Positions 2,563 to 30,677 are shown, counted from the first letter of the stretch. The stretch: DNA of 64,000 bases from Psammoneis japonica (GCA_008632985.1 QPGO01000245.1:1-64000), one strand, 5' to 3'. Numbers and translations are program-made. Notes: generated from the sequence alone by a model not told the origin.

Positions 2563-5523
2563 GACAGTTATTTATATTTATTGGGGCTGTTGAATGATAC
2601 ATCGTACGGTATGGTACGTACAGTACAGTACTGTACTGTACTCTATTGCATCTGGCCTGATGGAAGCGATGCTGTAACATCGCTGATTTCCGATGATTTC
2701 ACACCACCACCATGAGCGAATTGCAACACTTTGCGGCTATAATACGATCCGGACTGGAATCTCTCTCTTGTCGAAACCACCTGATACCCTTGCTTTACTA
2801 TCGCCAGGGGATCATCGGAGATGATTATGTCTTGATTTTCTCAGATAGCCTACATCCTTCAAGCGGCTCGTGGAATAAGGAATAAGTTCCGCAGCATGTT
2901 CCATGCTCTTTGTCCAGCCAGCGATACCAGGAACTCGTGCGCTTGATACTGAATATATTGGTTTCGAGTATGCAAGAGCTCCAGAACCACCCGATCACGT
3001 GGAGATCAGCTTCCAGTTGAAAGAACATTCAAGTCTCCAGATCTGGGGATCTTTCTGTATTGTATAGGATTCCACAATCTCCATGGGATTGGCTGCTTGT
3101 GCTGCGGCAGCCCCCGTCACTTACTTTGACGGCGTCTCCCATTACGAGCATGCTGTCAATACAAGCTTTGTGGGTGCTACGGATTCTATTGATGTTGATC
3201 TGATGACAGGGCCTCGTGATTTGACCACGCATATTACCAGTTGCTCAACTTTCTTCGACAAAAAGACACTGAAACCGGAAATATCACGTTTGATGCTGTC
3301 GGACGAACTTCTTTCGAGCTGGAACATGGCTTTACTGCGACGGAATAACCAGCATGCCTCCGCCTCTACCAAAGGTCCAGATGGACTACAACTACCTGAA
3401 CGGAGTACTACGTGGTATTGGCTTTGCCCTTTCGGACACTAAAAATCTTCTACATATTGCATTCGGGGTCTGAACCATCCGCTGCAGAACGGGCAGAGTC
3501 GTCAAAGCCTCAAAGCCCATTTTGTTGCTTTTCATATGCGGCGGTGTACTGTTAAAATGGGGTAAGGTATGTTCTGTTGTGTGCTTAACGGGCATCTGTG
3601 TTTTGTCGCATAAAGTGAAGACACGGCTCATACAATGTTTCCGTTGCGCACTCTTGTTTTTCTCGTTAAGGTCGGCCATTATTCCTTTGAGTTTCAATGT
3701 CAAAATTGAGAGCAAAACGAGCTGGATGTGGTATTGCAGTTCAAAGCACACCTTGGCTGTTGGTTGCTCGCACAAAGATTTCGGATGGAAATCGATTGGG
3801 ACGCTGGAAGCAACGATCGGGTAGGCTGCGGGAGTGATCGTAGCTGGGACACAATAAATAGCGGTGACGACACGGTCGAGAACCATCACCTTGAGAGCAC
3901 CTTTTTTGATCACCATGTCGAGGAAATGAACGAAGAATGCAATACCGAAGGTCACGATGAAACTGAATGTTGCTGTATGTTTTCTAATCTTGGAGGAGAT
4001 GCGACTTTGATTGCACCTCGTCCAGCTTCTGTCTCCGTGGCTCGGAGCATTATTTTTGCTCATCTTGCGAAATACCATACGTTGAGTAGAGATCCTTAAA
4101 AGAGGCAGGAAAGCCGTGGTCTTCTGTTGTGAGCGAGTATGATAGGATGCTAATGGAGTACAGGAACTGAAATCAACTGGTATTCCTATCCACAAACGAC
4201 TTGGTGATTCATTTTTACATTTCCGACTGGAGCAACTTTCAAAGCATTACAACTATGAAGTATTCTGTCTGGTGTCCGGGGTGGAATCAGGTTGACGGGT
4301 TGGAATCAGCAAGTACATGAGAGTAGTTTATTTGTTCCGCGTGTTCCCGTCTTGGCATTACTCGGTGATGTAGGGCTTGTTTTTACCGATTCGCTGCATA
4401 CTTTTTTGCGCGAGCAAACTGATCAGTTTGAAAAGGTATTTTGTCATCAAAAATCAAGATATGTACAATGCCCGAGGCATGAAAATCAAAAAGTGTATCG
4501 GAGCAGCGGGGATGGCTCGTATGCACAGAGCGAGATTTACTAGAGAAGAAGGCGCTAGATATTTGCGGTGTCCGTACATTGGGAACATCGCTATGGTCAG
4601 ATACTGCAGCATATGCCAAAATGTCATGAATGACTGCGGACGACGGTAGAGAGCTTCGAAATTTGTCAGCAAAAAAGAAACGCGTCAATGGCATCGAGAA
4701 TGTCTGCAGTGGTTGCAGGATTAATTGGTCAAGGGATTCCCACCACTGCACTAACACACCACATGCCTGAATTTGAAGGGACTAACCATCCCAGGCATGC
4801 TGGGGATGTGTTGGCCTGTTGCTTTTCGTCCCATTTGACCGAGTTCCTCTCAATCCCCGTCAAATTCTAGAAATGCGGTCACACCCACTTTAATTTTGTC
4901 GGAGACACACGTCTGCTCTCCAACCAGTGGGGTTGTAAAGCCCATGAGAAGCCCAATTATTGCACAGATGGCAAGGTGGTCGGAATCGACCAATTCCCAT
5001 GAGCAGACAGGGAAAGGAGAGAAGGCGCTCAAGCTCCATGTCAGTGTTGTCGGGGAGGAGACGATTTGCATGCTGATGGGATTAGAGGCAAAGTTCAGGC
5101 ACGGTCAACTTAGTGCATCTATTCTGGTTCTAATGGCATGTCAGCTTCTGCATTGTAAATTCTTTCTAGGCAATCGTCAAAAGATGCTCTTGGAAACTGG
5201 GTGCATCGTGTGCCTCACGCAACTTTTCAAACATCGTGCCGCCAACTAACTGCTGCGCGCGGCTCTTGCTCAGCTCATGGCATCGGCACACTCGGCAATT
5301 GACTGGATAAATCCACCGGACAAACAGTGTTGTGATCTCATTAACCGCACTTCATGAGCATCCATGTTTTGTGCCAAAGCCACCACAACATCAGCGCACC
5401 TGTGTCTGTTCCAACATTTCCAAATCCGCTGTGAAATTCTTGTCATTGCCCATGATGGAGGCTCCTGACTCAGTGTGGCAGTCAAGCAACAAGAGAGTTG
5501 TTTGGCGGCTGTGATTCCTTGCA

Positions 5524-6165
5524 CCCAAATGACATTTGATCTTTTGACAGCCAACCACATTTGGTTTGTTGCCTTCCCTGATCTGTTCTGGGGTGCCACC
5601 ATCCTCCTCCTTGATCCATGCCACTTTGGCCATCTCCCTCCTTTTGTCCAAAAGAAGCATCAACAAGGGCTCCCACTTCAGCAGCCAGCAATGTCAGCTC
5701 CAGTCATGGCAGATTGTCCAAATCCACATGAGCAGGTTTGTCAGATCCAAATGACACAGCAAAACTCTCTTTGGTTGAAGCAGGGTTGTCGCGACTTTTG
5801 TGCCAGGGAAGAGTGCAGCTGAGTGACGAGCAATGCACTTTGAAGTTGGCGGCCATGATTTCTTCCACCCAAACAACATTTGATCCTTTAACAGCCAACT
5901 GCATTTAGGCTCTTGTCTTTTCTGATCTGTTCTGGGGTGCCGCCATCCTCCTCCTCATTCCATGCCACTTCAGATGTCTCCCCTCTTTTGTCCAAAAGAA
6001 GTGCCAACAAGGGCTCCCACTTCAGCAGCAATGTCAGCTCCAGTCATGGCAGATTGTCCAAATCCACATGAGCAGGTTTGTCAGATCCAAATGCCAGCAA
6101 AACTTTCTCTGGTCATGGCAGGTTTGTGACTTTTGAGCCAGGGAAGAGCGCAGCTGAGTGAGGAG
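5524..6165. repeat. Local tandem duplication (about 340-bp unit) containing an inverted Copia RT fragment
   Basis: The segments ctgatctgttctggggtgcc and caagggctcccacttcagcag...gtttgtcagatccaaatg each occur twice. The minus strand encodes DGGTPEQIREGNKPNVVGCQKIKCH, similar to 7465-7540. Confidence 0.75.
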
Positions 6166-7199
6166 CACTGCTCTTGTCAAACTGGCAAGGTGCATCATGA
6201 ACAGTCCCAACCCATTTGGGTGCAGTTGGCTGGGGCGCAAGAGCAAAATTTTCATCCAGCTGTCAAAGTGCACAGATTTGTGGGCTGGCAGCAGGTGAGG
6301 TTGACCTGACTTTGGGTCAACCCACACAGTGGAAGCCATTCAGATTGGCACATCTTTCAAAGGTTTGCACTGCTTGGTGCATGACAAAATTGGCAACAGC
6401 ACCACCACAAGCATCAGGGCACAAGCCCAGATTGTTGGCAGGCATGCCATCAGCAGCTTCAGCTGTTGAGATGCAGTGGATGAGTGTTCATTGAGAGCTG
6501 TTTGCATGGACAATCGTGCAGTGCCAGCTGCTGGTTTGGACATCCATGATGTTGTGCCGCTGTGCAGTGGGCAACCCTGGATTGCACTGGCCCGCAGGAG
6601 CAGCTGATCATTGATCATCATGCAGAAAAGCAGCACCTTGCAAGCTTGCTGTTGTCCACACCAGCATCATGCAGGCAAGTTGTGGCCCAGCTGTTCATCA
6701 TGCAATTGGCACATTGTGCATGAAGGGGCAGCTTTGCAGAAGCTGCACAGTGTCAAATGTGGCTGTTGTCACACAGGGGCTCAATCTCCACATGGCCCTG
6801 GACTCATCTGTCACTGCCTGAGTGCTTGAACCCCATTCCTGTGCAGGTTGCAGCAATGTTCTTGCCCCACCCAAGTGCAAAAATGCTTCTCAGTTGGCTG
6901 GCCATGTGCCAGTGCCACAGAAGGTCACTCCCTGTCAGCTCTCTGTGGCTGTTTGTCAAGAGGAGAGCAGAGTGCAAAAAATGCAGCAATGTTGCTCATG
7001 CAGTTGAGAATGCACACAAGCATTTTTCAGAACTTTTGCTGCTCAACAAAGGCAGTGATGTGCCACAACCTTGCACATGTCAGCACAAGATGATGAGAAT
7101 TCCAAGACTCAACCCACTTGGCACAAACAATGCTGCAGAGATGCTGCATTTCATGACCAACTGAAGAGATGTTAAAGCCAGCTGTCAGGCACAATGTCA

Positions 7200-8260
7200 T
7201 GTTCAAAAAATTGTGACTGCAAATGTGGCAGCAAATTGCATGGCTGCACAACAGCTTGGGCACATGGTGCATTTTTGACATTGCTGGGGGATGTCAGCTG
7301 GACAAGACATCCCTGGAAAGGCTGCTGAGTGGCACACCCAGAGCCAACACTGGCAGATGGTGGTCATGGAAAAGCACTCCAGATTGGCAAGGAAGTGGGG
7401 ACAGATTGTTGGTGCAAGACCATCAACAAAGAAGCGTGGAAAGCAGATGAGGTGTGGAATGAAGATGGTCACATCCCAGAACAGATCAGAGGAGGCAAGA
7501 ACCCAGGTGTGTTTGGGTGTCAGGAGATTGGATGCCATTTTGTCTTTGATTTCAAAATGGACTTCACAAGGAAAGCAGGAAAAATTTGTGGCTGGCAAAC
7601 ACACACAGCAGAAGCTCCACTCCAAATTTTGCATGTTCAAGCATTGCGTCAAGAGACAGCACCTGCATTGGCTTGCTTTTGGCAGCTCTGAATGACTTGG
7701 AGCCACATCTTCTGTTGACTTGGAAAACATGTGTTTGAGCACACCATGGGCTGCACAGAGAAAACATGGCTTGAAGGGGGTTCAGAATGTGGCAAAACAA
7801 GAAGGGCACAAAAGGCCAGGTGCCAATTGTTGTTGGGTGAGTGCTGCATGTTTGAAAAGTGTGCTGGATGTTCTTGGTGGATGCAGCATCTCATTGCTTC
7901 TATCATCTGAGACCCAGATTGTTGGTTGACTGTGGCTGATCCTGACATCTGGATTTGTGCTGCAAAACAACCGGATGGTCATGAGCACTTTGAAATGTTG
8001 TTGTCATGTGTTGAAGATGTTGCAATTGCCTCCCATCAAGGCAATGCTGTTGTCAAACAACTCAATGCAGTTGTGAAGGTTAAACCAGGCAGCACCAGAG
8101 AATCAATGTGTTGTCTGGGAGCAGACATTGAGAAACTTCAAACCAAGGGTGAGCATGTTGTTTTGGGCAGCTCGCCAAAAAAATCACATGTTGGGGGTGC
8201 AATGAACACAGCTGAGAAGCTGTCAGAGTCAGAAAAGTTGGCCCCAACCAACGTTTTCAA
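7200..8260 (+). mobile_element. Degenerate Ty1/Copia (CoDi-like) pol fragment (RT)
   Basis: GCQEIGCHFVFDFKMDFTRKA resembles GYQEIKCHxIFDVKMDFTRKARF. DLENMCL resembles DxxNAYL. ADPDIWICAAKQPDGHEHFEMLLSCVED resembles ADPDVWxRxAxKPDGxEYYEMLxxYVDD. Confidence 0.85.
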
Positions 8261-10419
8261 GTGAGTCAAAAATGTCAGCCCCAATGAACTTTTTCTTGTC
8301 AGTCAAAAAGGTCACAACCAACCTTTAAAAGTGAGTCAAGAAGGTTGGTCTCAACCAACCTTTCCAACCAACCTTTTCATTGTCATGTGCTTGCCTGCAT
8401 GCAAAGCAACAGAGGCTGAATGACAAGAAAATGGGAAAAACTTCAAACACACAACAACACAAGATGTTTCATGCTTGAGCATCAGGGTTGTGTTCTTGCA
8501 GAAGTCATCACCAATCTTTTGACAACCAGCACAGTGCTTGAACAGCAACAAACCAGGCCTTGTGAAAGCAGTCATGTGTGAAAAGTCAGGGCTTTGGTTT
8601 TTGCAAGTTGGGCATGCTCCAGCATCAGGATGCAATGCACAAACAACAGACCATTTTTGTCAATTTGCACACAAAGCACATGTTTGTTGTGAGCAATCAT
8701 CTCAAATGTTGGCATTTAAAAAATTTGAGTGCCTTGCACAGACTGTCCAAGACTCATTTTCTCAGTTAACTGCCAGGGATGCAAATGCCCAGCACAACAC
8801 AAACAGAAAGTAGAGTGCAAATGACTGCCCATGACTGCATCAAATTTTGCCCCTTGACATCAAAGTTGGTGCCATCAGATCTGATGCATTTCTTTTCAGT
8901 TTTTGCAGGTGCCCTCTCTCTTTTTGATCAATGCCAATGAGTGACACACTTGTGAAGCAATTTCTTCATGACCTTCTTCAAGTGTTGAGAGTGGTGCTGA
9001 ACTCTGCTCATCTTGGGCTGTTTCTTGCCCCCACTCTTAAACTGTTTAACACAAAAACAACAACACATTCAAAACAGCTGCAATGCACAAATTGGCTCAC
9101 AAGTGCACAGTTGTTTCTGTTTCACACAGATCTGCTTTGACAACCAACTGCATCAAACTTTTTGTGGTGCATCAAGTGCACCTGCAATTTTTTTGCCATC
9201 AATGAGTTTGTTTCAGCAAGCACTGCACTGTGTTTTGCTGCTTCTTTTGTGACACACACTGCATCTGCTTCATGTCATCAATTGGTGCCACCCAAGCAGC
9301 TGGTGCAAAGCTGTTTGAAAGAAGTTGTCAGTGGAAAGGGTCATTCCTGCACAGACAGTGGAGATCACTCTCAGGTCACAAGCCTTGCTTTTACTTGGTG
9401 CAAGGAGGGGCCATGCCACACCGTGAAACAACAAAACAACTTCAGTGGCCATTGTCAAAAACCAGCAGTGAGCATTTGCAATGCACCCACTTTCCTCTGT
9501 TGACACCATTGATGTGCCATTGCCGTTCATCATGTCACTTTTGTCAGTGTCGCCAGACAACATTTAATGTGGCTGTGGCATGGCACACACTCTGCTTGCA
9601 CAGCAAACCTGTGTGAGGTGCACTGTCAAAGATTCAACATCAGCTGCCCTGTGCACAGTTTGATTTCTTTCAGTGCAACAACATCAAGATGGTCCTTGCA
9701 AACAGCACCTGTTTGAAGATGGCGTTGTTCTGGTGAGCAAAATTGTCATTGATGCAAGCCTCTCCATCCTTGGCATCAGGAGCTCAAGATGGCAATTTGC
9801 CAACTTCCACTGCAACCAACACTCTGTGTGGACTCCCAGCTGTCTCTGCTCCACCGGCCAACATTGTTGCTGCACATGATGTGACTCACCCCATTGTTGG
9901 GTTGCATCCCACAGCAACAGCTCCATCCCATGCTGCTGCCAACACAAACCTGGAACCCACCCACATTCCAGCCTCCAATGCCTTCGCTGCTTTCCAGAAG
10001 GCTGCCACCACCTTGCTCAGCCACAGACACATGTGGGCCCAGAATTTCTCATGCCAAGTTAACACCCCTGCCCACACTGCCACTCTGTCAGCAACTGCTT
10101 GGCCAGTTGCTTCTTGTTCTTTTTCAGCAAAAAACAAGACTGACCCATTTGCCACTTTTAAGATTGCTTTGGGCAAGCTTGACAAGCCAATTGAGTGCAA
10201 GGAGGCTGGTGTTTTGCTGTTGACCAAGCAGCCATTGCACGTGTTGTGAACAAGGTGACTGCTGCAACAAAAATGCACTCCCTTGCTTGATGCTCATCAA
10301 CATGTTGCATGTTGTGAGCTTCCATCTGTGCACCACATGCAGAGGATGACTTCTCTGCACACCATGAATGAGGCAAATTGATCCATTGTCTTTTCTAGGA
10401 AGTCAGTCGTCCCAGATTC

Positions 10420-11300
10420 CACTCACCCCAACCCTGCCAATGTCACAAGCCTTCCATTGTCAGGGGTTGTGCTGCTTGGAGTTGTTGTCAGTTGTTGCCT
10501 TGGCTGCTCCCTGGTGACTTGCTGCTGCCACATTGGCGCTGCTCTGGCCACCCACCTGTGATTTCCTCTTGGATTGGGCAAGGTCTGGAAGGCCTCCCGA
10601 CATTGTGCTTTGGCGTCATGCCAGCTGTGACCTCCCAGCTTGCTTTCCCACTCATGCTCAAGCAACCTCTTGGTCTGTCAATTGTTGATTGCCCAACATT
10701 TGGTTGGGACAAATTGCACATTGTTGGGTGCAGAAATGGGCTCATTGCCCTGCCGGCCAATTTTTTTGCCAACAAACGGAGTTTTTTTTTGCTGGTGGCA
10801 AGCCCAATGCATGTGCATGGACACCAACACACATTGTCTTTGGCAATCAACACTTGTGCATTGTGCACTCATCATGTCACAACATGTGAAAAATGTGCAC
10901 ACTCTGCACACAATGACCCACACAATGTGAAGAGTTCATGTGCAATTGTGTGCCTTGAAGCACGAATGTTTGATTTTTCTAATTTTCCATGACCTTTCAA
11001 AACACAACGACAATGGCAACCATGAGTGCAACATGCCCCATCAATGACCAGAAACTCACCATGACACTGACACATGTCAACAGCTCCTGATTGATTTTGC
11101 ATGTCTGTGGCTTCTTGCTGTGCTTTGAAATTGATTGATTGCAGTGAAAACAGCTAAAATGTTCAATTTTTTTGCCCATTGCTTTTCAACTGCATGAGTC
11201 ATCAACAACAAGCCTGTTGCACTCTCATGTGCAAATTCCGCTGTGCACAAGTTCACAAGATGTGACATGCTGTTGATTCTTGTGGCTCTTCAAGGTGACA
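10420..11300 (-). mobile_element. Degenerate Ty1/Copia RT fragment of a second family
   Basis: AKDNVCWCPCTCIGLATSKKKLRLLAKKLA resembles AKDGYVYxEIxKGMYGLPQAGxLANxLL. Flanking fragments resemble the TG..EYRxL / WxxxxxNExGRL and LxWDY..ISMPGYV segments. Heavily decayed. Confidence 0.55.
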
Positions 11301-12583
11301 CCACCATTGAAAAAATGGTGACCACTGAGTTGCCATGGTTGTGATGTGGTTTCCTCAGTTTTTGGCTGCCGCATGCCGTGTGCAGGGCCCCACCCATGGC
11401 AACCAAAAGTGAGCTGTGCTTGTTGAGTTAGCACGGCCACCACTTTGCGCATCATGTGCCCACCACTCTCAGCCGGCGGGGCTGACAGCAAAAAAAATCA
11501 TGATTTGGCAAAAAAAAAGAAACTCCTCAGGCTCATTGCTCCTCTTTTGCCATCTGTCTGTCTGGCAGCCATGACTCTCACCACTTCTTTTTTGCACCGG
11601 AAGATCTTCAACCCTGTTTTTACCAGGCTTTTGACTCTCCTGGTGTGTGTGTGTGTGTGTGNNNNNNNNNNNNNNNNNNGGGGGGGGAGGGGGTGTCAGT
11701 GTGATGGGTCACTCTCAGAAATTGTCAAAAAACAGCCGGGCCCACACTCTGTCATGGCAACTTGTGCAAGAAAACATGTGTCACTTTGCACAGAATTCTG
11801 TGCACATGGCTCAAAGCATGCAGCTGTTTTCACATGTGGTTTGCCAACATGAACAAATTTGTTGCTGGCTCAAAGGCATTCTTTGTGTGTGCAGCAAAAA
11901 TGCAAGCTGCTGCCAGCTTCCAACTTTGTGGCCTGAAGAACAAGAACTCCCAACAAGTCAATTGTTTGCAAAGCTGGGTGTTTTTGTGAACTTGTTTGCT
12001 CATGAAGATGGACAAAAATTTGCTCTCAAGATTGGCAAACCACTGTGTTGCAGTGCTGCTCAAGCAACAACATGAAAACATGTGGGAGGAGCACAGCAGC
12101 TTGTTGCTTTGGCTGTGTGAGGGGCAGGGTTGTCTCTTGTTGACATTGTTTTGGTTCAGCAAGTTTGTCCCTGGCTCAGTGGCCACACAAAGGCTTTGGC
12201 TGTGATTCAAACAAGTGTGCCCCCCATTGAGAGCAACACAACTGACCCTGAACCATCTCTTCCTTGCTTGACAAACAAAATGTTGACAGCTGTGAAACAG
12301 ACAGTTGTTGCCAAACACAACACCCTTGTTTGTCGCTTGTTGCAATGACATGTGAGACCTGCGGTGGGAAGGCAGAGCCAACAACAAGTCCAAAGTCACA
12401 CATTGTTTGCACAAAGGCACAGACAAAGAGCACAAAACAAATGTGTGAATTTTCACCAACAATGCCTCTTGACAATGAAACCAAGCAAAGCTCCAGCCAC
12501 TGCCACTGGTGCAAAGAATGGCTTTCTTGTGTCTTTTCTCCAGCCAGCCTTGCTTTTTCCCTGCTGGCTTGTGGCAGCACAAA

Positions 12584-12742
12584 ACAGAAATTGAATGAGA
12601 TTCAGTGGCAAGACAAACAATGCTTCTCACTGCTGTTTTTCATGATGCATGGAGCTGAGAGCACACACAGCTGTGTGCAACAGCCAAACACACTGCGCGC
12701 AAAAAGTCACAAACAACTAAAATCGTGTTCAAATCCTGTCAC
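12584..12742 (-). repeat. 3' LTR relic of the Copia element
   Basis: The blocks acagaaattgaatgag..gtggcaagacaa..ttctc, tgatgcatg..agagcacacaca and gttcaaatcctgt align with 17574-17795. Confidence 0.75.
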
Positions 12743-15700
12743 TCAATGTTTTGAGCCACAGGAAGAACATTGTCAAAATTGGATGAACAAAGCACTTTGG
12801 GATCAAAGTTTTGGAAAACATGAGAGAATGAAGCAAATTTCAAATTTGGGAGCAACCCCAATGCTTGCTTGGAGTGTCAGCTGGGTTGCAAAAAGCCTCA
12901 ATGAAAGAATGAAAATTGAGAAAACCAGAAGCAATCACTTCGTGCACTCAGTGAAATGACATGGTGTGGTGCTTTGCTTGTGCAACTTGAAGTGTGGGAT
13001 CACAGCACTGTTCACAACAAGAACTGACTTCTTGTCATCACCAAACATGCAACCAGCATCATTGATCAGGACACCTGGGTGATGCAGAATGATGGTGTGC
13101 AGGTTGACAACCTGCTCTCCAAACAAGTCCTTGCAGCAACAAATTCTAACCCACATGTGGCAGCATTGATGGTGCTGTTTTGTTTCTTGGAGAGAACCAA
13201 CAGACCAGGAATTTGTCAAGGAAGCAGAGGATGCCTGCAACTGATCATGCAGTGAGAGAGATTTGGTGCATCAATGCAGCAGGTCACAGTGGTGCATTTG
13301 CCAAGGGTCTCAGGGGCATCCATCAGAAGCATCTCTTCCACATTGCCACACACGGTGGTGTGTGCCCAATCATGCACAGGTTTAGGAAGGTTGAAGCAGT
13401 TGGTTCCTTGGTGTGCACACACACACACACAAGGCTCCATGTTGCATCTTGGCATGGTCCAGATGGCAGCCTGGTGTGGTGCCACACAGAAGCTGGAGAG
13501 AGACATGACAGCCACAGTCACACAAATGCAACCAAGTGACACAGCCCATTGGAGGGACCCACCAAGAAGGGGCTGGAGCTGTTGAATGCCACCTGGTTCC
13601 AAAATTTGAAGATGTTGAGCTCAGGGTGATCTCTCTTGTCCAAAAAGGAAAACATGATGTTGTTGTGGCCTGGGTTTTCTTGCCAAAGAAATGTGTGCAG
13701 GTGTTGGCCATGTGCTCAATGTGCTTGCAGGGTGTGAGGCACAAAATGTGCCATTGGGGTCATGGGAAAAGTTGTGCCAAGGTGGAGCTCAATCAGCCCA
13801 GCACCTTTTAGCTTGAACTTGTGCTTTTCTTAAGGGCATCTGCAAAAGCCTGGGAATCCCTCATGGTTGTGGCCAAGTTGTCAACATGCACTGCACTGCA
13901 GCATGTTTGCAGTGGTCGCTGTCCCTGCACATCCAGATGCTGGGCTCAGCAAAGCATGGGAAGAATCCTCCAGAGCAAAGACAATCTGCAAACAAGCATC
14001 ATTTGTGCCTGCTTTGGCTGGAGATGTGGAGCCTGCACAGCACCTTGTGACTGACAAGAATGTGGCCTTCAAGGTTTCCAAACTTGGGTCTGGCAATGAT
14101 GCACAACCTCTCCTTGATGGTGGCTTTGAGGTGTGCATTGCCAATCATGTCCTCTGTGGCCCAAGTTTCTGGTTTGTTGAGCTTGGCCAGGAAGACCATC
14201 GGAGGGACACCATGGAGAGACACCACCCCAGAATGAATGCTGTTGACTGGGACATCAATCAAGTGCCCATGTGCTGCAAGACATGCCTTGTGGCATCCAC
14301 CACATTTGATGTCATGAGCAAAGTGCACATGGATCTTCTTGTGCCCCACAGGAGCTTGGAAGTTCTTGCATTGGTGGCCACAATCATGGAACATGGAGTG
14401 CTCATTGAGTTGGTTCATCTCAAGATCCATTGCATCTTCCCATTTGTGGTTCCCATTGCATTCATCAAGGGTCACGGCATGTTGATGGTCACCAGCAGGG
14501 ACTTTGCATCTGCACTTGCAGCAAGGTGCAGTGTGGAAGGACCTCTGCTCAGCTCAGTTGGCCATGTGGAACAGTTTCTTGTGATGTCTTGCAATGCCAC
14601 AGAAATGCTTCTGTGTCCAGGAGGCTGCTCTCACATGTGCAGATTGCTCACAGGTGACAGAGTCATCCTTGGCAATGATGGTCAGGAGTTCAGCTGTGAT
14701 CTCCCCAATCTCCCACTTGAGTGAGCCACTGCAGCTTGAGCCTTTCCACATGTGAGGCTGTGAGATCTCAGTGCGGAGGACCCTCATGCAAAAGGGTGTG
14801 TCAGAAAAATGTTGTCATTGCAAGCAAGAGTCACTTCATGTTCTTCATTGTTGATGGCGCAAATGAATTTGGCAAGTTCCAGGTCATTGATTGCTTTGCT
14901 GTTGTGGTCTTTGACTGCCTTGACCATGTGGGCTTGATGCCATTGTCTGTCCTCTTGTGGTTTTGCAAGGAAGGTGCATCCAACAATGTCCAATGGGTCA
15001 AAAGCTGGCATCTTGGGCGTCCTGATCTCCCCATCTAAAGGACCATCAGAGCTGGCATTGGGGCAGTCATGATGGGATGTGACAACAATGGGTGAAACAG
15101 TCTCCCCATCAAGAGGATTAAGACGCAAGTTGTGAGCCAGTGGATCATGGGTGACAGGGTGCATGTTGGACCTGAACATCAACACCTTCCAAACGTCATC
15201 AGAGAGAGAATCTTGAAAGTCATCTGGTGGCCCAAGTGTGTTTTGCTGTGCCAACAAAGTGGCCACACAGTGCCCAGGATTCAGGTGGCCAGCTGGATTC
15301 GTCAAGGTGGCAGCAGATGGGTTCCCACTGGTGAAAGTGAAGAGCGGGGCTCATGTGTGTTGGGTGGAGCCACTTGGCACCTTGGTGGGTGTGCACCAGC
15401 AGCACAGTTTGGTGGTTGGCAGATGCAGTGTGGTTTAAAAGAAAACACATGCACATGAGAGCAAGCAGCCACATTGATCCATGATGGTGTTGGCCATGTT
15501 CTTCTCTGTCTGGTGGCATCACTTGGCAAAGATCTGATGCTGCTGGTGAGGTTCACTTTGCCAGCTGGAGACAGAGCATGGAGAATCCCAACAACCTTGT
15601 TGCTGATCTCAACCTGAGTTTGATTGCTGATGAGCTTGGAGGGAGCACCACATTCATGGATGTCATCCTCAAGGGTGTCAACAAATTCTTTCTTGGTCTC

Positions 15701-17573
15701 AGTGCCACATGTGTCAATGACAAGCAATTCCACGCCAGCAAAGAGTTGAACACTGGCACAACCCAAGTGGATCACCGGGGTGTCTGAGCAAACCCTGCAA
15801 GTTGCAATGGGGGGTTGTTGCAGCAATTGAATGTTGAGTGCTGGGTTGGGAGACTTGCAGGCCTTTTTCAAGTGTGTGCTGGCATGCATGCAGGTGTGTT
15901 GCATCATGCAATCAAAGGTGGTGCAGCATGCAGTCTTCCCATCAGAACAAAGCCAAAGTGTGGTTGCAGGGAGATGCAGTCAGGGTCCTTGGGTTTGACC
16001 TCATGCTCATGGCACTTGCAAAAGAAATCAGATGTTGGCAGCCCATGATGCTCAATTAGATTCCCAGAGCATTGCATTGCATCACAACATGCTGATGACA
16101 GCAATTGCCACACTGGTCAAATGGGTTGGTGGTTGGGCAGTTCTGCAGTTCAGAGATGGCATCACACCACTCATCATTGGTGGTCAACACATGAGCAAGC
16201 ACCAATGGAGACATGGAGCAAATCACATTGTGGGTGTTGACATGACAACAAGTGCAGCCATTGAGCTCAATGTTGTTGGGTGCAGATGTCAAGGTGGCAG
16301 TGGGCTGGGACTTGTCAGGAGAGCAAGCCACCTCAGAGGACTTGTTGTCAGGCAACAAGAACTGTTGGAGCCCAGTGGCAGAGGTTTGTGCTGTGCATGG
16401 TGTGCTGGAATGGGGCTGTCATCTAGGACATCCACAGTGCTGTCAGATGTGCAGGGGGGGCTGGAGGCAGGGTGACATCATGAGACATGGCAAACAACTT
16501 GACATTTCCATCACTCCCCAGGTGAAGGTCATGGAGATTGACCATTGCTGAGTTGTGGCAGTTGGCAGCACAGGGCACATGGGACTCAAAGATGATCACC
16601 TTGGTGGATGGAGGCAATGTGCCCACCAGATGCACTGATTTCCCAGAGGGATGCAGTGCCATTGGTTGCTGGTGAGACTGGCCCTTTGTTGATGGGGTGC
16701 ACTTGCACTGTGGGAGGCACAGGCTTGAACAACATCAACATCACTGTCCTTGTCATTCTGCAGGAGGGATCCACTCAAAAACAGCAAACATGTGCTTCCC
16801 CTCATTGAAAAATTCCTGAGCTGTGGCAGTGGTGGGCCGGCAGCTTGGATCAAGAATGTGTGCTCATCATCCTGCACTTGGGCTTGAACAATGACAGAGT
16901 GCAATGTGTGCCACTGCTTGTCATAAAAACATCAGGGTCATGCTTGATGCCACACTTGAAATCATGGAGGGGATCATGGTGGCAAAGAGCTGGGTGCAGG
17001 AGCAGAGGAGGGAGCTGCACCTGCTGTGATGACAGAGATGCCACACACTTGGGGCTGAGACAACACCCACAAAACTCTTTAGCAGGTGCAAACAAGTGGG
17101 GGTCATTGCTGACATCAGTGCCTCCACACCCTTCTTCAGTGTAAAAGCCAATCAAAGCCAATGGCAGACTTTGGCAGCCACATGGCAGAGCGACACAATT
17201 GGTGCCATCATCACAGATGGAGAGCAGCCTGGCACAAATGTGTGAACACATCCTTGCATGAGTCTGACCCATCAACAGGCAAGGCAGAGTGGAGAGGGCT
17301 GTCTGCAACTTGACTCAACACTGCTGTGTTGAGGATGTGCTCAAGGCCCTGAGTTTGTTGTTGCCTGGTGAGAACCATGTTGATGGCAAGAAGCACAGAA
17401 GGCACAGAAATGGCTGGTGGAGAAAACAAAAACTGAGCTTCTTGGTTTTTAAATCCAAGCCGCAGAAGGTGAGTTAACATGTTTCCGCCAATGCAGCAAG
17501 CAGCATGTCGAAAAACAATGATGACATGCTGGGTGCTCAGTGTGGTGTCAACAGTGCCAAAGCTGTTGATCTG

Positions 17574-17795
17574 ACAGAAATTGAATGAAAACTGGTGGCA
17601 AGACAAGCAACACTTCTCCCTGCTGTCCAAATGGCACATGGGTCACCATGCAGAGACCATTGCAGGAGCCAAAAAAGACATGCATCATGTTGTTGGCATG
17701 CATGCACTGATGCATGAAGACAAGAGCACACACAACTGCATGAGACAAATCTCGCACAACTCACATCCTGTTCAAATCATTCAAATCCTGTGACA
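17574..17795 (-). repeat. 5' LTR relic of the Copia element
   Basis: Same three blocks as 12584-12742, lying upstream of gag. The minus strand begins TGTCACAGG. Confidence 0.75.
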
Positions 17796-18471
17796 GTGAG
17801 TCATGCAGAGAGTGCCCCTCAAGCAGCTGTTCACCCTGCCAACTGGGGAGCTCAAGCTCCCAACCCTCAACTCCAAAGACAAAAGCTCTGCCATTGAGCC
17901 ACAGCAGCTGTGCTCACCTGTGTGCAATTTTTTTGTGGGTGTTCAAATCCCGCTGGTTGATGGCTGGCAGAGGGGCACAGAGCTTGCTTGGCTGGACCGC
18001 TGCTGTGTGGTGTGTGTGATGTGGCCCCAAAGCAAAAGTTGTGTGTTGGCATGGCACAGCACAAATTTGTTTGAGGCTTTGTCAATCACCAGCCTCGTGC
18101 AGGAAAGAGGAGAACCTCCCTCTGCTGTGCACCAACACACAGCCCCCTCTCTTGTTCCAAGTGCACTCTGCATTGCTTGCCATTGCACCAAATTCTGGGT
18201 GAGAGGTTGGCCAGCATGGGGTCAAAGCAAGAGGAGATCATCTGATGAGTGGACACTGTGCTTGAGATGGCAAAAACACCTCAGCAACCTCAAAGACAGA
18301 GCTGAGCTTTGTCATTCATTGTGCTTCAAATGTGGCAAAACCTTTTGTGTGCATGATGTGTGACAGTGAGAGTGCAGCAGCTGCAGCTCAATGGCAGAAC
18401 TTGTGTCTTTGGGGAATGAAAGGACAGGGGCTCAAGCCCCCCCAGCCAGCCAGAGTGGCTTCTGCTTGAGG

Positions 18472-18474
<3 letters not shown>

Positions 18475-18510
<36 letters not shown>

Positions 18511-18534
18511 GTCTCTCCCTCCCTCTCTCTCTCT
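18475..18534. repeat. (CT)n/(GA)n microsatellite
   Basis: Directly visible, imperfect at its 3' end. Confidence 0.95.
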
Positions 18535-18874
18535 GGTGAAACAAGTTGATTGGCACAGACAATCATCCATCAAATCATGTGACTGACAACTGGAGCAGCT
18601 GGAGTCAACAGCTGCAATTTGGGTGCTCATTTCAGCCACACAACAACAGCAAGGCACAGGATTGTTGGCCAAAGTCAGGAGCAAGTTTTCTGCAGTGGCT
18701 TCATCAACAGCCAGCTGTGCTGTTGCCAGCACAAGATGGAGGCTGTTGCATGAAAAGATCCAAGGGGCAGGCAGACAGTGAGCAGTTGTCAAGTGGGCAC
18801 ATTGCTCTCCCTGTCTGTTGCTCCATCTCTCTCTTCCTCTGTGCGTGTCTCTGTCTCTCCGGCTCTCAGCTGCC

Positions 18875-19090
18875 GCCCCCTGTTTGCAGCCCTGTGGGAC
18901 AAAACTTTGGGGCCATGTTTGGGTGCAAAAGGAGGTTGCCAAGGTTCTAGGATCCTCAGCTGCAACAGACAATCATGCGGTCAAGCCCAGCAGCACATTG
19001 TGGGGCATGGCTGCACCGCAGGTTTGAGAGCGGCTGAGAGTGGCGAGAGCTGGGTGGGCCAAAGGAGCAGCGCCAAAGCTTGATCTCACA
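18875..19090 (-). mobile_element. Degenerate 3'-end fragment of a Penelope-like RT, related to the element at 26010-26220
   Basis: Shares ctgtttgca..ggacaaaact..gggccat, caacagacaatcatgcggtcaag and ggtttgagag with the element at 26 kb. Translates GLDRMIVCCS. A CT-rich tract is adjacent. Confidence 0.75.
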
Positions 19091-19436
19091 AAAGCAGCAT
19101 TTGAGAGTGGTTGAGAGTGATGAGCTGGGTGGGCTAAAGTGCCAAAGCTTGATCTCACAAAAGCAACCATGGCTCAAAGGCAAAGCTGTTGTTGCTGGCC
19201 CGCTCTTGATTTGGGCACAGCGGGAGAGACAGCCGCTGGAGGAGCATGCCCCACCTGCCCTCTTCCTTTTTGCCAACAAGCTGCCAGTGGCAGCAGGGGG
19301 GGAGTGGCTGGTCAGCTGGACGAAAGAGGACAAAGCAGGTTTTTGCAGTGATGCTGGCTGGTGGCAGCAGCCACAGCTTCATTTGGACAACACAGCATCA
19401 CGCTTTATGTAGCGTAAAAATTATTTTCGAGGTAGC

Positions 19437-21499: not shown

Positions 21500-22899
21500 T
21501 CTTCTGCATGATTCGTTCTTGAATAACGGAGCAACATTTATTTTGTGAGCGAAGTAATTAGCACAACGCACAACACACACACACTCTGGCGAGTCAGTCA
21601 TTCGAGTTTCCATTTTGATGACCTCAAAATGACTTCGTCTGTGCGCCCGTTCCGGTTGGTCTCACTGGTTGTTCAGACCAAGAATCAATCGCCTCACCGC
21701 AAAGTGAAAAACAGGCAGTGGACAAAAAGCCAAGCATGAACCTATGACACTGTGCTGTTGAGCCGGCAAGTCACTGTCACCAAAAGGGAATCCTGCCAGG
21801 CTTCCTGTGCCACTCATTCTTGCACTTGCCCTGTTGCTGTGTCGGCTGTGGCTCGCCTCAACATCGAATGTCAAACGTGTGCCAACAGATTGTTGGGTGG
21901 CAACAGATGGCACTTGTTGTTCTCAATCAACCAGATGATTCACTCCAAAGAGTGAGCAGAAAAAAGTCAGTGAGATCATGACAGATGATGGAGAGAAGAT
22001 CCTCCAAAGAAAACAGCAGTCAGCATCCTCAACTCGCCACGTCAGCGCTCAAAAGATGCAGCTGCATTTCCAGGTCACAGGTGGAACCCCTTGAGCCAAA
22101 GGCTTCAACATGTGCCAACCATGGTTGCTGCCAAAACCATCAACACAAATTCACTCACATTTCTGCTCTCAGAGGGGGTGACTCTCAACAAGCTTGAAAA
22201 TTGATGGCACACATTCTGGCACACACAAGGTCAAGCAAAGTTCTTCAAAAGCCATTGCTCGGTTGACACATCATTGGCATTTAAAAAGTCCTTGTCATCC
22301 ATCTGAGGGACAATGTGTTTTCTTCCCTTTGTGGATGCTGCAGCTTGACAGATCTTTTGCTTTTTTCTGTGACCTTGTTTGCCTTGTTCTTCTTGTCCTT
22401 GGTGCGTTCATCATTGCACATGCACACGCAGCCAGACAACCCAAGTGGAGGCCTTTTGGGCAGCAGCAATGTTGAGGTAGCTTTGGAAATGTGGTCATAA
22501 AGAATGACATGCAAAAACAATGTGGATCCCATGAAGGGGTGCTGGAAACACATTTTTCACAAGACAAAACATCATGTTCATGTTCTCTGAATTTTGTGTG
22601 TCAACATTCCCTGCCCTGAACAATGCTTGCATGCCACCCCAACAGCAGCCATGGTGCATTTGGTGCCAATGTGACATGCTTGACAGGCAATTCACAAATG
22701 TGTCAACAGGCTTTTTCAATCACTTCTTGAGTGTGTGTCCACCACAGCTGTCGCCCGTGCACAAAAAGAACATCAGCTCAGAGAAAAACAGCTGAAAGAA
22801 GAAAGCTCTCACACCACTCTCATTCCTCCACACCTTTCACAGCTCCATCAAAAGTCAGAGGTGAACAGAGCACTGGCATTTGTCAATGTTTCACCGTGT

Positions 22900-24210
22900 C
22901 TTCAACAGCAGGACACTTGAGGTTCCAAAGCTCCAGAGTGAAAGGATCCCACGACGGCGGCACCAGCCATCCTGACAACAACAAACTGAGGGCATTGGTG
23001 TCTGGCAGATCCCAGGTGACACTTTTGGGAATTGCAGCTGGGTGTTGAAAGGTTGACCTTGTGTTGTTGAGGCCCCATGTCATCTTGTTCCTGACAGCAG
23101 GTGAGCAGATTTGACTTTCCCAACTCCAGAGTGTCTGGTGGGCCCCAGGAGTGACTTCAAGAATGGTGGCTGAGCACTGCAAGATTGATCTCATGGCATT
23201 GTGGTCCCATGTCACCTTGTCCCCAACAGCAGCAGACTTGACTTTCCCAATGCCAGAGAGCAACAATCTCATGATGGCACCAACCAACCAAACAGCTGCA
23301 AGCTGAGGTCATTGGTGGTGTGTGGCAGACCCCAGGCAAGACTTTGAGAACTGTGGCCAAGCATTGCAAAAGGTTGATGTTGTGGTGTTGTGGTCCCATG
23401 CCATGTTGTCCTCAATGGCAGCTGACTTGAGTTTCTAAACTCCACAATGCAAAGATCCCATGACATGCCAGTGCACCTGACAACAGCATCAGCCTGAGGA
23501 CATTGCCTGGCAGTGTCTTGTTTGCCCCAGGTGAGACTTTGAAGGAACTGGTGGGGTGCTGCAAGGTTGATCTTGTGGCACTGTGGCCCCATGTCACCTT
23601 GTCCCCAACAGCCACAGACATGACTTTCTCAACTCCAGAGTGAGGAAAGGAGGACCCCGTGACAGCACCAGCCAATCCAAGAGCTGCCACCTGAGGACAC
23701 TGACAGTGTCTGGTGGATGAACAGCAAGACTTTAAGAGCTGTGGTTGAGTGCTGCAAGGTTGATCTTGCGGTGTTGTGGCCCCATGTCAGCTTGTTGTCT
23801 CTGGCAGCAACAGAAAACTTGAGTTTCCCATGTCCAGAATGCAAGGATTCCATTGTGGTGCTGGCCAACCTGACAACTGCAAGCTGAGGGCATTGGGCCC
23901 CAAGCAACATGCTCCTGAGAGCTGGGGATGAGTTTGCAAGGTTGACATTGTGGTGTTGTTGCCCAATGCCACCTTGTCCCCGTCAGAAGCAGACTTGACT
24001 TTCCAAACTCCAGAGCAAAATGATGCCATGACAGTGCCATCCATCCTGTCAACAGCAAGCTGCAGGCCTTGGTGGTGTTCAGCAAATCCCAGGCAACACT
24101 TCTTAGAGCTGTTGTGGCTGGGCATTGAAAAGTCAATCTTGTGTCATTGTGGCCCCATGTCACCTTTTCCTCAACAGCAGCAGATTTGAGTTTCTGAAAT
24201 CCAGAGTGAC
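22900..24210. repeat. Degenerate tandem repeat, about 190-bp unit, about 7 copies
   Basis: The anchor ggYcccatgtcacctt recurs at about 23071, 23203, 23392, 23585, 23778, 23961 and 24151, each followed by ..actccagag. Confidence 0.85.
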
Positions 24211-24599
24211 TGGTTCAAAGGTTTTTGATTGATGAATGGCAGTGGGTGAGAATGCAAGAAACATGAAGTTGTTTGCAATGGCAAAATGGCATGAGGAAAA
24301 TGGAGAACTTTGCATTGGCATTTTTGAAGCAAGTTTCACTTTGCTGGAAGCAATGAAAAACTGCAATGATCAGACAAGCCATCTTTCACCCTGATCTAAA
24401 GCTCAAGTGAGAATGGATCTTGTTGGAAGATTGGTTGAGATGCAAGTCAGAAATGTCAAACTGAGCTTTGTTGGTGGCACACAACACAACTTTTGGAAGC
24501 TTGCAGCCTCTTCAAGCTTTCCTTCCATGAGTTGTCAAATGAGTTTGCATGGCTGGTGTTGTTGACAACACAGCAGTTGCAATGTGGCACCAATCATCC

Positions 24600-25700
24600 A
24601 TGCTGACCTTTGCACAAAGTCTCAATCTTGAGTGAGTTTTCTGTCTCCAAAGCCTTGGTCATTGCAGCTGGTGCCATCCAGTCATGCAACCCAGGTCCTG
24701 GAGTCAGGTTCATGGAGAGCACTCACCCTTCTCTCTGAATGACAAATTGGCACCAGCACTTTGACAAGCATGGCATCCAAGTGGCCCTCAACAATCTTTT
24801 GCAAGAGACAGAACTGGTGCATTCACAGAAAAGAGCTGCACAAACAGAGAACACAATTTGGTGTTCCCCACCAGAAATCCACTGCCTGCTGCAGAGTGCA
24901 ATGTGCAAGCACAGACTGAAGCAAAAAACAAAACCAAATTCTTGCAGTCATGCAGGCCCTGATGACTTGGCACCCCACAATGTTTTCAGCACATTTGTTG
25001 TGTCTGTCAACAGCTTCAAAGAAGTGGCATTGAAGAAAGCACTGATTGACCCACACTGCAATCTGGGTTGATGTTGGCATTTGTCAAATTGTGATGTGAT
25101 GACTGTGTTGAGTTGGTTGACAAGAATTTCTTGTGGCAACAGGAAGCGTGAATGATGGCATGGCCATTGCAGGGGCTGCATGACATTGTGAGCCAAAAGC
25201 TCTGGAGTGTGCAAGCTGACACTGGGCAGAAGGAAAGGACTCAAGTTTGCAATTGTGTTGTTTGTCAAAAACAGGGACTGCTGGTTCAATGATTTGTTCA
25301 TTTGAAAAGAGAGTCTTTTCACAGGCATGCAATGAGGATGCCGTGAGCTGCAACAGGGCTGCACTGTTGTTGCACAAACAATGGATTGAAGGCTGAGTTC
25401 TTGTGTGGTGCCTGGTGCAACAAAGAAACACAACAAAACATGCAACGGGCAACTGGGTGGCAGAAGATCTTCCAAAACAAATGAGCTGGCTCTGGGCAAG
25501 ATGCTGGGCCACAAAACAGAGCATTGCAAATCTACCACCTTTGGAAAAATTGACTGTTGGCCTGGATGACAAACTTTGGCAATGGCAGATTTGTGGCTGA
25601 AAATGAGCCAGTGTCAAAACATTGTTCAGAATCACAACTGCTTGTGACTTCTGTGAAGAGTGCAGTCACAGGTGCAAAGATTTTTTTGTCAATTTGCCTT
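24600..25700 (+). mobile_element. Possible non-LTR retrotransposon 3' remnant
   Basis: HATGNWVAEDLPKQMSWLWARCWA resembles the TG..W....LW....W C-terminal pattern of stramenopile LINEs. Very decayed. Confidence 0.3.
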
Positions 25701-25829
25701 CTTGTTGGGCATGAGAAAACATGCTGCAGATGACAGCTGTGACAAACAAAGAATGCAAGCAGCTGAGGTAGAGCCACTTAATCGGACATTTATCCAACTG
25801 TTTCGGCAAATGGCAGGCACAACAACGTT

Positions 25830-25877
25830 GGCCGAAGTCAGGAGAATGAGACTTTCGCGGTGGCTTCATCAGCGGCC
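25830..25877 (-). ncRNA. Type I hammerhead ribozyme (copy 1)
   Basis: Minus strand reads GGCCG-CUGAUGA-A-GC(CACC)GC-GAAA-GUC(UCAUUCUCCU)GAC-UU-CGGCC. The core is intact, with a 5-bp stem I, a short stem II and stem III. Confidence 0.8.
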
Positions 25878-25966
25878 GGCTGTTGTTGTTGACGTGGTTG
25901 AGGTTGTTGCGTTAAAAAATCCGAGTGGTGGAGGACAGGCGAGTTGACTCGATTGATTAATTCAAA

Positions 25967-25971
25967 TCACC

Positions 25972-26010
<39 letters not shown>

Positions 26011-29306: not shown

Positions 29307-29460
29307 TGTTGTCGTTTCACTCTCTCTCGAATGAACGAACGAATCGGCACAGCCGATTCTCCGTCAAATGTGACAAACAAAGAATGCAAGCAGCTGAGGT
29401 AGAGCCACTTAATCGGACATTTATCCAACTGTTTCGGCAAATGGCAGGCACAACAACGTT

Positions 29461-29508
29461 GGCCGAAGTCAGGAGAATGAGACTTTCGCGGTGGCTTCAT
29501 CAGCGGCC
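29461..29508 (-). ncRNA. Type I hammerhead ribozyme (copy 2), upstream of ORF1
   Basis: Identical to 25830-25877. Confidence 0.8.
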
Positions 29509-30326: not shown

Positions 30327-30328
<2 letters not shown>

Positions 30329-30367
<39 letters not shown>

Positions 30368-30638
30368 GATCAAAATTGGCAAAGCCAATTTTCCGTCAAA
30401 TGTGACAAACAACAGCGGTGCAAGCAGCTGGGGCAGAGCTGCTTAATTGGATGTTTGTCCAACTGTTTTGGTGAATGGCAGGCACAACAACATTGGCCCA
30501 AGTCAGGAGAATGAGGCTTTTGTGGTGGCTTCATCAGCAGCCGGCTGTTGTTGTCATTGTGTGGTGGGCGTTGTTGCGTTAAAAAGATCCAAAGAAGGAC
30601 AGACAGGTTGATTAAATTGATTCAATTCAAGTCAAGTT

Positions 30639-30674
<36 letters not shown>
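30329..30674 (-). mobile_element. Older degenerate copy of the PLE 5' repeat (inactivated hammerhead), flanked on both sides by (CT)n
   Basis: 30363-30630 aligns with 29329-29587, with TA>CA/TG and CG>TG/CA changes. The hammerhead GAAA has become AAAA. Confidence 0.8.

Positions 30675-30677
<3 letters not shown>

Follow-up and report, generated by a model that had tools for sequence, protein, structure and literature searches.

What process strips the dinucleotide TpA from whole blocks of DNA while the genes beside them keep it is the question raised by a 64,000-nucleotide stretch of the diatom Psammoneis japonica (GCA_008632985.1, QPGO01000245.1:1-64000; hereafter the window). The original prediction, made from the sequence alone, had placed a repeat-restricted hypermutation of TpA to TpG or CpA at 4700 to 19405 and in three more domains, had recognised degenerate Copia retroelements there, and had proposed an undescribed genome-defence system as a candidate behind the pattern. 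The explanation that we favour, with a probability of about 60%, is a context-specific, block-targeted A:T to G:C transition at TpA acting on chromosomal DNA derived from mobile elements.

We determined observed/expected ratios (o/e) of dinucleotides in 1-kb bins and TA counts in 250-bp bins, with 28,104 bp of ordinary sequence from the same window serving as the normal baseline. In 13 consecutive bins (6001-18001) TpA o/e was 0.00-0.07 and CpG o/e 0.02-0.19, while TpG and CpA stood at 1.74-2.11 and 1.74-2.34, respectively; gene-bearing flank bins, in contrast, had TpA o/e of 0.38-0.79 and CpG o/e of 0.82-1.24. TA counts per 250-bp bin were 0-2 over 5501-19250 versus 5-21 outside. The largest depleted block (A1, 5400-19150, 13,751 bp) held 37 TA against ~547 expected at normal density. 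Normal sequence contained 39.8 TA, 56.0 CG, 76.1 TG and 71.5 CA per kb, whereas A1 contained 2.7, 5.6, 120.1 and 120.1, a TpA density 15-fold below that of the flanks; the combined losses in A1 (TA 37.1 plus CG 50.4, or 87.5 per kb) were close to the combined gains (TG 44.0 plus CA 48.6, or 92.6 per kb), and its GC content (0.43-0.52) was similar to that of the flanks. The depleted blocks also showed an excess of GpC and a deficit of ApT, because TAC becomes TGC and TAT becomes TGT, and ApA was not lowered in them (AA o/e 0.88-1.56). TpA was mildly under-represented throughout the window (o/e 0.4-0.8), as it is in most genomes. Further TpA-poor domains lay at ~21560-32547, 50000-57303 and 58928-60522, so that the predicted near-absence of TpA from A1 and three more domains beside normal flanks was borne out.

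Domain edges were sharp to tens of bases. On the left, TA density was ordinary up to 5342 and the next TA occurred only at 5889; on the right, a TA at 19135 was followed by one at 19406 and thereafter by one every 4-50 bases. The end predicted at 19405 was therefore exact, while the start at 4700 was ~640 bases too early, the true edge lying at ~5343. At every edge the TA-free zone overshot the CpG-poor core by ~150-500 bp, and in the margins 18844-19405, 21560-21876, 32385-32547 and 57004-57303 CpG was ordinary and TpA absent.

Two classes of block could be distinguished. Class A blocks (5.3-19.4, 21.6-25.7, 29.7-32.5 and 58.9-60.5 kb) had lost both TpA and CpG, whereas class B blocks, namely the retroelement B1 (25.96-29.37 kb) and the unclassified block B2 (50.5-56 kb), had lost TpA alone: CG stood at 58.6 and 52.4 per kb in B1 and B2, respectively, compared with 56.0 in normal sequence, and TA at 7.0 and 4.5. 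Thus 80-90% of TpA was already gone from CpG-intact blocks, and no 250-bp bin of the window had lost CpG and kept TpA. Among relatives of B1 found in metagenomes, four (L035, L059, L030 and L011) had CpG o/e of 0.23-0.36 with TpA o/e of 0.53-0.69, and with two more included (L003 and L009) the ranges were 0.23-0.42 and 0.42-0.69, the converse of class B. Class B blocks and these converse relatives together make TpA loss and CpG loss separable, and the process that removes TpA is independent of the decay of 5-methylcytosine (5mC). Judging from base composition, TpA loss in this window would either precede CpG loss or strike unmethylated DNA; class B blocks are possibly younger than class A blocks, by inference rather than by dating.

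Direction and context of the change

The direction of change was read from proteins whose intact relatives are available. Pfam scans of long open reading frames (ORFs) and of read-through translations of the depleted blocks returned no transposon family even at E = 0.1, and RVT_2 was detected by Pfam in neither Copia reverse-transcriptase fragment of A1; their identity came only through homologue searches, in which 7404-8132 retrieved PF07727 (Copia reverse transcriptase) proteins. The altered peptides that had first drawn attention to the locus were all recovered by six-frame translation (CVED at 8007, GCQEI at 7515, GHKKI at 14346, IHSGVVS at 14238 and GNAHL at 14142), and they lie in stretches that tblastn assigned to Copia polyproteins, as predicted. 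When 15 intact Copia polyproteins were aligned and columns with at least 60% agreement were considered, conserved Tyr was kept at 0 of 19 columns (His 6, Cys 5, others 8) and conserved Arg at 2 of 20 (Cys 5, Gln 4, His 3), while Gly was kept at 19 of 29, Lys at 9 of 13 and Trp at 5 of 8. The same column test on B1 with 41 relatives left Tyr at only 2 of 19 columns (Cys 12, His 5), with Arg kept at 15 of 21, Gly at 15 of 15 and His at 9 of 9. These fates indicate TAY to TGY or CAY (Y, pyrimidine; R, purine) in both Copia and B1 and decay of CGN codons in Copia only, in agreement with the predicted direction and with the predicted separation from 5mC deamination. The depleted copies also contain frameshifts and stops.

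B1 is a 3.85-kb retroelement whose reverse-transcriptase relatives are abundant on contigs of 3-4 kb. At 78 metagenomic loci with such relatives TpA o/e was 0.42-0.85, compared with 0.08-0.19 in B1 bins, although these loci were searched for with patterns that include Tyr, so that the set is biased to intact copies; intact elements are thus not equally TpA-poor. Against 69 relatives of at least 2 kb, the B1 coding strand had 7.3 TA per kb versus 42.0 (range 23.1-62.3) and 52.7 CG versus 52.8, with CA and TG raised by 24 and 16 per kb and the GC step raised by 22 per kb, above the relatives' maximum. AA was 85.6 versus 95.5 per kb, and neither AA, CA, GA nor AG fell below the range of the relatives; TA was the sole A-containing step outside that range. 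The loss is therefore specific to A after T, which argues against a polymerase signature of the WA type.

Repeats within the window were compared with one another as well. In 8 aligned repeat pairs (2,079 dinucleotide columns) there were 153 adjacent double differences, 40 of which were CA versus TG; the next commonest type occurred 9 times and other double transitions 2-7 times. This excess means that one ancestral TA (or CG) was converted independently, on different strands, in the two copies, and hence that mutation took place after the copies arose and on both strands, the latter as had been proposed from the appearance of both His and Cys at Tyr columns.

The bases around TA influenced its survival strongly. 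Relative to normal sequence, TAT fell from 10.6 to 0.1 and TAC from 13.5 to 0.1 per kb in A1, while TAA fell from 8.3 to 1.7 and TAG from 7.4 to 0.7, and the mirror pattern was seen for ATA and GTA versus TTA and CTA. Among the 37 surviving TA of A1, 31 were YTAR, 3 YTAY, 3 RTAR and none RTAY, whereas the YTAR share of TA in normal sequence is 15.5% (p = 6e-19, odds ratio 28); TTAA alone accounted for 25% of all surviving TA versus 4% in normal sequence. TA persists, then, where neither strand reads TAY, so that the preferred site is one in which the A of 5'-TAY is changed, and the target looks like 5'-TAY on either strand. The two terminal direct repeats of B1 are 100% identical and hold 5 TA each, being less TpA-depleted than the B1 interior; of these 5 TA, a diverged class A copy of the repeat retains the 2 YTAR and shows GTAG changed to GCAG and TTAT to TTGT.

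Survivors in class A were strand-symmetric. In class B, plus-strand TAY was nearly gone, while RTAR, which carries TAY on the minus strand only, persisted like YTAR: survivors were 14 RTAR, 8 YTAR, 2 YTAY and 0 RTAY in B1 (RTAR/YTAY versus normal, p = 0.0016) and 14, 7, 3 and 1 in B2 (p = 0.005). Survival of plus-strand TAY in B1 was 0-5% versus 43% for RTAR, and the plus strand of B1 is antisense to the reverse-transcriptase gene; relative to the family baseline, the sense strand retained 2.8% of its RTA and 28.6% of its YTA. In B2, ORFs of 361 and 342 amino acids (aa) on the minus strand exceed the longest (340 aa) produced by 300 first-order Markov simulations, which makes the plus strand probably antisense there as well. 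In CpG-intact blocks one strand was therefore saturated first, the antisense strand where this could be told. The bias in B1 is incomplete, since the 12 Tyr to Cys changes are A to G on the sense strand, and a block at 56.0-57.2 kb has the opposite bias (YTAY 4, RTAR 0). A reading in which only the plus strand of B1 was attacked was discarded, since its basis was raw counts of TG and CA on a G-rich strand and it was contradicted by the Tyr to Cys changes and the family baseline, which show both strands hit, the antisense strand more.

Weighing the mechanism

Because TpA reads the same on both strands, a single reaction could give both products. A hit on the A of the top strand would yield TG and a hit on the A of the bottom strand CA; neighbouring genes would be spared and blocks derived from mobile elements targeted, with YTAR as the resistant class because it offers TAY on neither strand. 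The process would run faster than methyl-CpG decay and independently of it, one strand saturating first in CpG-intact blocks and both being saturated once CpG is lost. Our leading guess as to the agent is an adenine deaminase of the TadA/ADAT type, which would convert adenine to hypoxanthine, the simplest and likeliest chemistry, in transiently single-stranded DNA, the change being fixed as G at the next replication. No deaminase domain was found among the window ORFs scanned with Pfam. The element would be inactivated irreversibly, losing all its Tyr codons and many of those for Ile, Val and Leu. The 3' pyrimidine rule speaks against an ADAR-like enzyme and brings the putative activity nearer to TadA/ADAT2, a fit that is partial because TAT is lost as fully as TAC. 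What the sequence shows is the signature with its direction, context and confinement, the fact that it does not depend on CpG loss, and the separate mutation of repeat copies; action in situ on chromosomal DNA, enzymatic deamination of adenine and a role in defence are inferences from it.

Sequence reads were used to assess whether the depleted DNA exists as assembled. One public read run contains 98% of sampled words of 14000-23999 and may be the assembly's own source; two further runs contributed 3 and 0 contigs only. Within the block as first predicted (4700-19405), the comparison with reads covered 14000 onward. Read contigs agreed with the window with 0-2 differences at 21500-23235, 23867-25615, 29671-30256, 30767-31214 and 31211-33000, in line with what had been expected of a genuine pattern, and two domain edges, at ~21.6 kb and ~32.5 kb, were each bridged by a single contig (unique depth ~60). 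Depleted sequence at 30716-32635 is now single-copy at 80% likeness (depth ~60), and other depleted parts are multi-copy (depth 500-2400); confinement to mobile-element blocks with sharp edges was supported, and restriction to repeats in the strict sense was borne out only in part. The B1 family was multi-copy in read contigs, at ~10-30 copies judged by depth, most of the differences among copies being transitions, and differences to paralogous contigs comprised 912 transitions versus 303 transversions.

That the pattern arose in sequencing, assembly or polishing, or through a chimeric join with foreign DNA, is very improbable. The only run containing the sequence may indeed be the assembly's source, and at 27791-27797, in the B1 copy, the letters C, A, C of the window are T, G, T in all of the 9-10 read contigs, which leaves the window's B1 copy doubtful at these positions. 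The contigs were nevertheless built from reads independently of the assembly, which excludes an artefact of assembly or polishing and a chimeric join: they match single-copy depleted stretches and cross two edges, the flanking genes in the same contigs are normal, and the columns affected are those of Tyr and Arg in genuine transposon proteins. We give even less credence to a native composition, that is, to avoidance of TpA under selection such as UpA-directed RNA cleavage or codon usage. The mild window-wide deficit of TpA would suit it, but intact relatives have Tyr at the Cys and His columns together with normal TpA, the depleted copies carry frameshifts and stops, and codon choice cannot account for o/e values of 0.00-0.07 that extend to every frame and to non-coding repeats.

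The main rival places the same chemistry elsewhere. A host adenine deaminase might edit first-strand complementary DNA (cDNA) during retrotransposition, as an adenine counterpart of APOBEC3, with repeated cycles saturating one strand. The B1 strand of first-strand-cDNA polarity (antisense, plus in the window) is the saturated one, the plus strand is likewise saturated in B2 with its long minus-strand ORFs, the terminal repeats of B1 are identical and less depleted than its interior, and most differences between the copies of its multi-copy family are transitions. We still regard this route as unlikely to account for the window as a whole, since class A is saturated on both strands whatever the orientation of its Copia pieces, 12 of 19 B1 Tyr columns became Cys by A to G on the sense strand, TpA is also scarce in tandem and satellite-like repeats and in the margins outside the CpG-poor cores, CA and TG occur at the same sites between repeat copies within one locus, and, in the available text of the report on the alga Bigelowiella natans discussed below, the targets are double-stranded DNA viruses mutating in situ. 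Both routes, in situ and through cDNA, may operate. A cause other than deamination also seems improbable, whether error-prone patch repair of the Pol-eta type or mutagenic processing of a modified base (methylated adenine or oxidised thymine) at TpA in silent chromatin. A symmetric DNA modification would be consistent with a palindromic TpA target that is hit on both strands, T to C at 5'-RTA is another way of writing the same event, and sharp-edged blocks would suit a chromatin-directed mark. Pol-eta errors, however, fall at A preceded by A or T (the WA motif), and ApA is not depleted in the blocks or in B1, which disfavours the repair candidate named in the original prediction; moreover, nearly all changes are transitions that yield a single product pair, and a modified base was not evidenced for diatoms in what was found.

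Several observations weigh against the in situ A:T to G:C transition that we prefer. The strand bias of class B is not predicted by a simple double-strand in situ model and is fitted equally by first-strand cDNA editing, and terminal repeats of B1 that are identical and less depleted than the interior are awkward for mutation that is purely post-integration. TAT is lost as fully as TAC, although C follows A in the motif cited for TadA/ADAT2. A change of A in 5'-TAY is also a change of T in 5'-RTA, so that attack on thymine is equally possible from sequence. YTAR survives at 20-40% of the gene-region baseline, which makes the class resistant rather than immune, or else the baseline wrong; and the read support is not independent if the run is the source of the assembly.

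Features of the window

Table 1. Positions of the depleted blocks and of the element fragments recognised in them, with the basis of each assignment.
Feature	Position	Strand	Basis
Class A domain: TpA-free, CpG-poor mosaic of degenerate Copia pieces (CpG-poor core ~5510-18840)	5343..19405		Composition, edges
Copia polyprotein N-terminal fragment	6202..6504	-	tblastn with full-length polyproteins
Copia reverse-transcriptase fragment (PF07727 relatives), containing GCQEI and CVED	7368..8258	+	tblastn, homologue search
Copia RNase H-region fragment	13114..13602	-	tblastn
Second Copia reverse-transcriptase fragment, containing GHKKI, IHSGVVS and GNAHL	13882..14484	-	tblastn
Class A block with ~190-bp repeats at 22.9-24.2 kb, multi-copy in read contigs	21560..25737		Composition, repeats, contigs
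Class B retroelement B1, TpA lost and CpG kept	25738..29587	-	Repeats, homologues, composition
B1 terminal direct repeat, 5 TA in 219 bp	25738..25956		100% identical to 29369-29587
B1 reverse-transcriptase gene, one frameshift near 27200	26021..27938	-	~630-aa relatives, 43-51% identity
B1 terminal direct repeat, second copy, cut by N gap 29588-29670	29369..29587		Self-alignment
Class A block including, at 30401-30688, a third B1 terminal repeat, diverged and mutated	29671..32547		Composition, repeats
Class B block B2, TpA lost and CpG kept, unclassified, internally repetitive, long minus-strand ORFs	50000..56000		Composition, repeats
Short block, TpA lost and CpG lost in part, strand bias opposite to B1 and B2	56001..57303		Composition
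Class A block, 2 TA in 1.6 kb	58928..60522		TA count

A (CT)n tract at 25974-26010 and again at 30329-30364 adjoins the B1 terminal repeat. On the sense strand of B1 this tract is a (GA)n polypurine tract directly upstream of the 3' repeat, a position that agrees with the minus-strand orientation of the element. Within B2 there is a tandem array at 53975-55076 (301-bp unit, 3.7 copies, 80% identity) whose copies differ chiefly by transitions, CA versus TG pairs included. An atlas search and two scans of viral contigs with the B2 ORFs gave no match, which neither supports nor contradicts a viral origin; some parts of class A, besides B2, are likewise unclassified. Just upstream of the TpA-poor part of B2, 48000-52000 has an A-rich and T-poor top strand (AT skew to 0.43) and ~196-bp repeats at 49.1-49.55 kb, with TpA ordinary for its base composition.

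Spurious long ORFs occur in all six frames of A1 and the other depleted blocks, 13 of at least 150 aa in 4-20.5 kb, because TAA and TAG, two of the three stop codons, nearly vanish. Mutated elements that escape Pfam and carry long spurious ORFs would make automatic annotation misleading. Between the depleted domains lies a VWA8-like gene (38022-41888; three AAA_5 stretches and a weak VWA_2 match) in two adjacent ORFs; since its diatom relatives measure ~1,300 aa, a frameshift or a short intron may interrupt the gene between 40505 and 40596. The best named relatives of the VWA8-like ATPase ORF are from Seminavis robusta (67%), Amphora (62%) and Nitzschia (59%), and the host was assigned to the raphid pennate diatoms. 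A sulfite-oxidase-like gene (Oxidored_molyb and Mo-co_dimer; 42042-43607, minus strand) is also in two ORFs, presumably separated by an intron. An exact look-up of 10 window ORF products in a protein collection gave no match, and an atlas search for hints of the taxon yielded bacterial molybdopterin clusters only.

Comparison with known systems

RIP, known from Neurospora and other fungi, resembles the process described here in producing irreversible, dinucleotide-specific transitions on repeated or mobile DNA that inactivate elements, and in some spill-over beyond the core. Strand bias is likewise known within single RIP events. The chemistry is opposite, however, as the original prediction had it: RIP turns CpA into TpA by C to T change and leaves DNA rich in AT and TpA, whereas here TpA is destroyed, CpA and TpG rise, and GC content is level or higher. 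RIP is triggered by duplication; the depleted parts here include both multi-copy and single-copy sequence by present depth at 80% likeness. Decay of 5mC yields the same TpG and CpA and is present in class A, where CpG is scarce and Arg has become Cys, Gln or His, but it cannot remove TpA, and B1 and B2 lose TpA with CpG unchanged.

Hypermutation of retroelements by APOBEC3 is likewise of the deaminase type, and in B1 the strand of first-strand-cDNA polarity is the more changed; the differences are that A rather than C would be attacked and that both strands, non-coding repeats and margins are hit. ADAR, which hyper-edits double-stranded RNA, and the tRNA adenosine deaminases TadA/ADAT2-3, engineered DNA adenine base editors among them, convert A to inosine, which is read as G, and favour a U or T 5' of the base that they edit, and in the available part of a review its table gives 5'-UAG as the preference of ADAR and 5'-ACG as that of TadA/ADAT2 (PMC10661471). 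TAG is among the survivors here, in contrast to the ADAR preference, and TAC is erased. ADARs are, to our knowledge, known from animals only. In the tRNA substrates of the other family, position 33, preceding the edited A34, is U; natural TadA/ADAT enzymes differ from the present activity in acting on tRNA loops, and natural genome-wide activity on DNA is not established for them.

No literature report of TpA loss or of RIP-like mutation in diatoms was found; RIP, TpA, hypermut and dinucleotide do not occur in the available text of PMC2806351 and 10.1101/2025.10.24.684338, and in that of PMC4504042 they occur in unrelated passages only. The claim of an undescribed system could nevertheless not be upheld, because the same signature is described in a preprint on the chlorarachniophyte Bigelowiella natans (Mettrop et al., bioRxiv 10.64898/2026.01.13.699255). 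According to its available text, integrated DNA of nucleocytoplasmic large DNA viruses (NCLDV) and virophages undergoes TpA to TpG/CpA hypermutation, measured in mutation-accumulation lines: of 231 de novo mutations that fell in two integrated viral regions, 230 were A to G or T to C at TpA, at a rate of ~6e-7 per site per generation, ~1000-fold above background and in only some lines. Reverse-transcriptase and DDE Pfams are enriched there among TpA-poor coding sequences, and the authors propose an ADAT2/TadA-like deaminase; diatoms, tri- or tetranucleotide context and CpG are not mentioned in that text. A rate like that of B. natans would saturate TpA long before CpG decays, which would fit class B being younger than class A.

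The present signature is thus of a recently described kind, now in diatom retroelements and with new anatomical detail. Targeted A:T to G:C hypermutation of invading DNA had been reported once before, in that 2026 preprint on a single rhizarian alga. If the process is the same, it would be a property of at least two major marine phytoplankton lineages and would join RIP and APOBEC editing as a third type of genome defence by mutation, which suggests that DNA-editing defence reaches further than has been recognised. Handles for finding the enzyme, which would be a natural DNA adenine editor, are the TAY rule, the YTAR survivors, the saturation of one strand first and the independence from CpG decay. 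More speculatively, diatoms and chlorarachniophytes might share an ancient and dedicated defence enzyme, a DNA adenine editor of 5'-TAY that is processive on one strand of silenced mobile or viral chromosomal DNA and erases it in an evolutionarily short span, well before methyl-CpG decay; this would amount to a RIP-like system of opposite chemistry across stramenopiles, alveolates and Rhizaria, a possibility that we hold only tentatively.

As far as the available text of the preprint allows comparison, the two cases agree in the product pair (TpA to TpG/CpA), in hits on both strands, in non-host blocks beside normal genes, and in a long-term footprint of TpA-poor 1-kb clusters rich in CpA and TpG, with transposon Pfams enriched among TpA-poor coding sequences there. 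The 13 consecutive bins at 6001-18001 fall within the preprint's own cluster thresholds, and the window likewise shows almost only A to G and T to C transitions, at A after T, confined to mobile DNA beside normal host genes. They differ in host (Rhizaria there, Stramenopiles here), in targets (double-stranded DNA viruses there, Copia and another retroelement here) and in extent (Rho of 0.45 in the NCLDV region versus o/e of 0.00-0.07 here); a rate was measured there, whereas the window holds a sequence footprint. The TAY rule with its YTAR survivors, the strand bias of class B and the overlay of CpG decay are found here and not in the preprint's available text.

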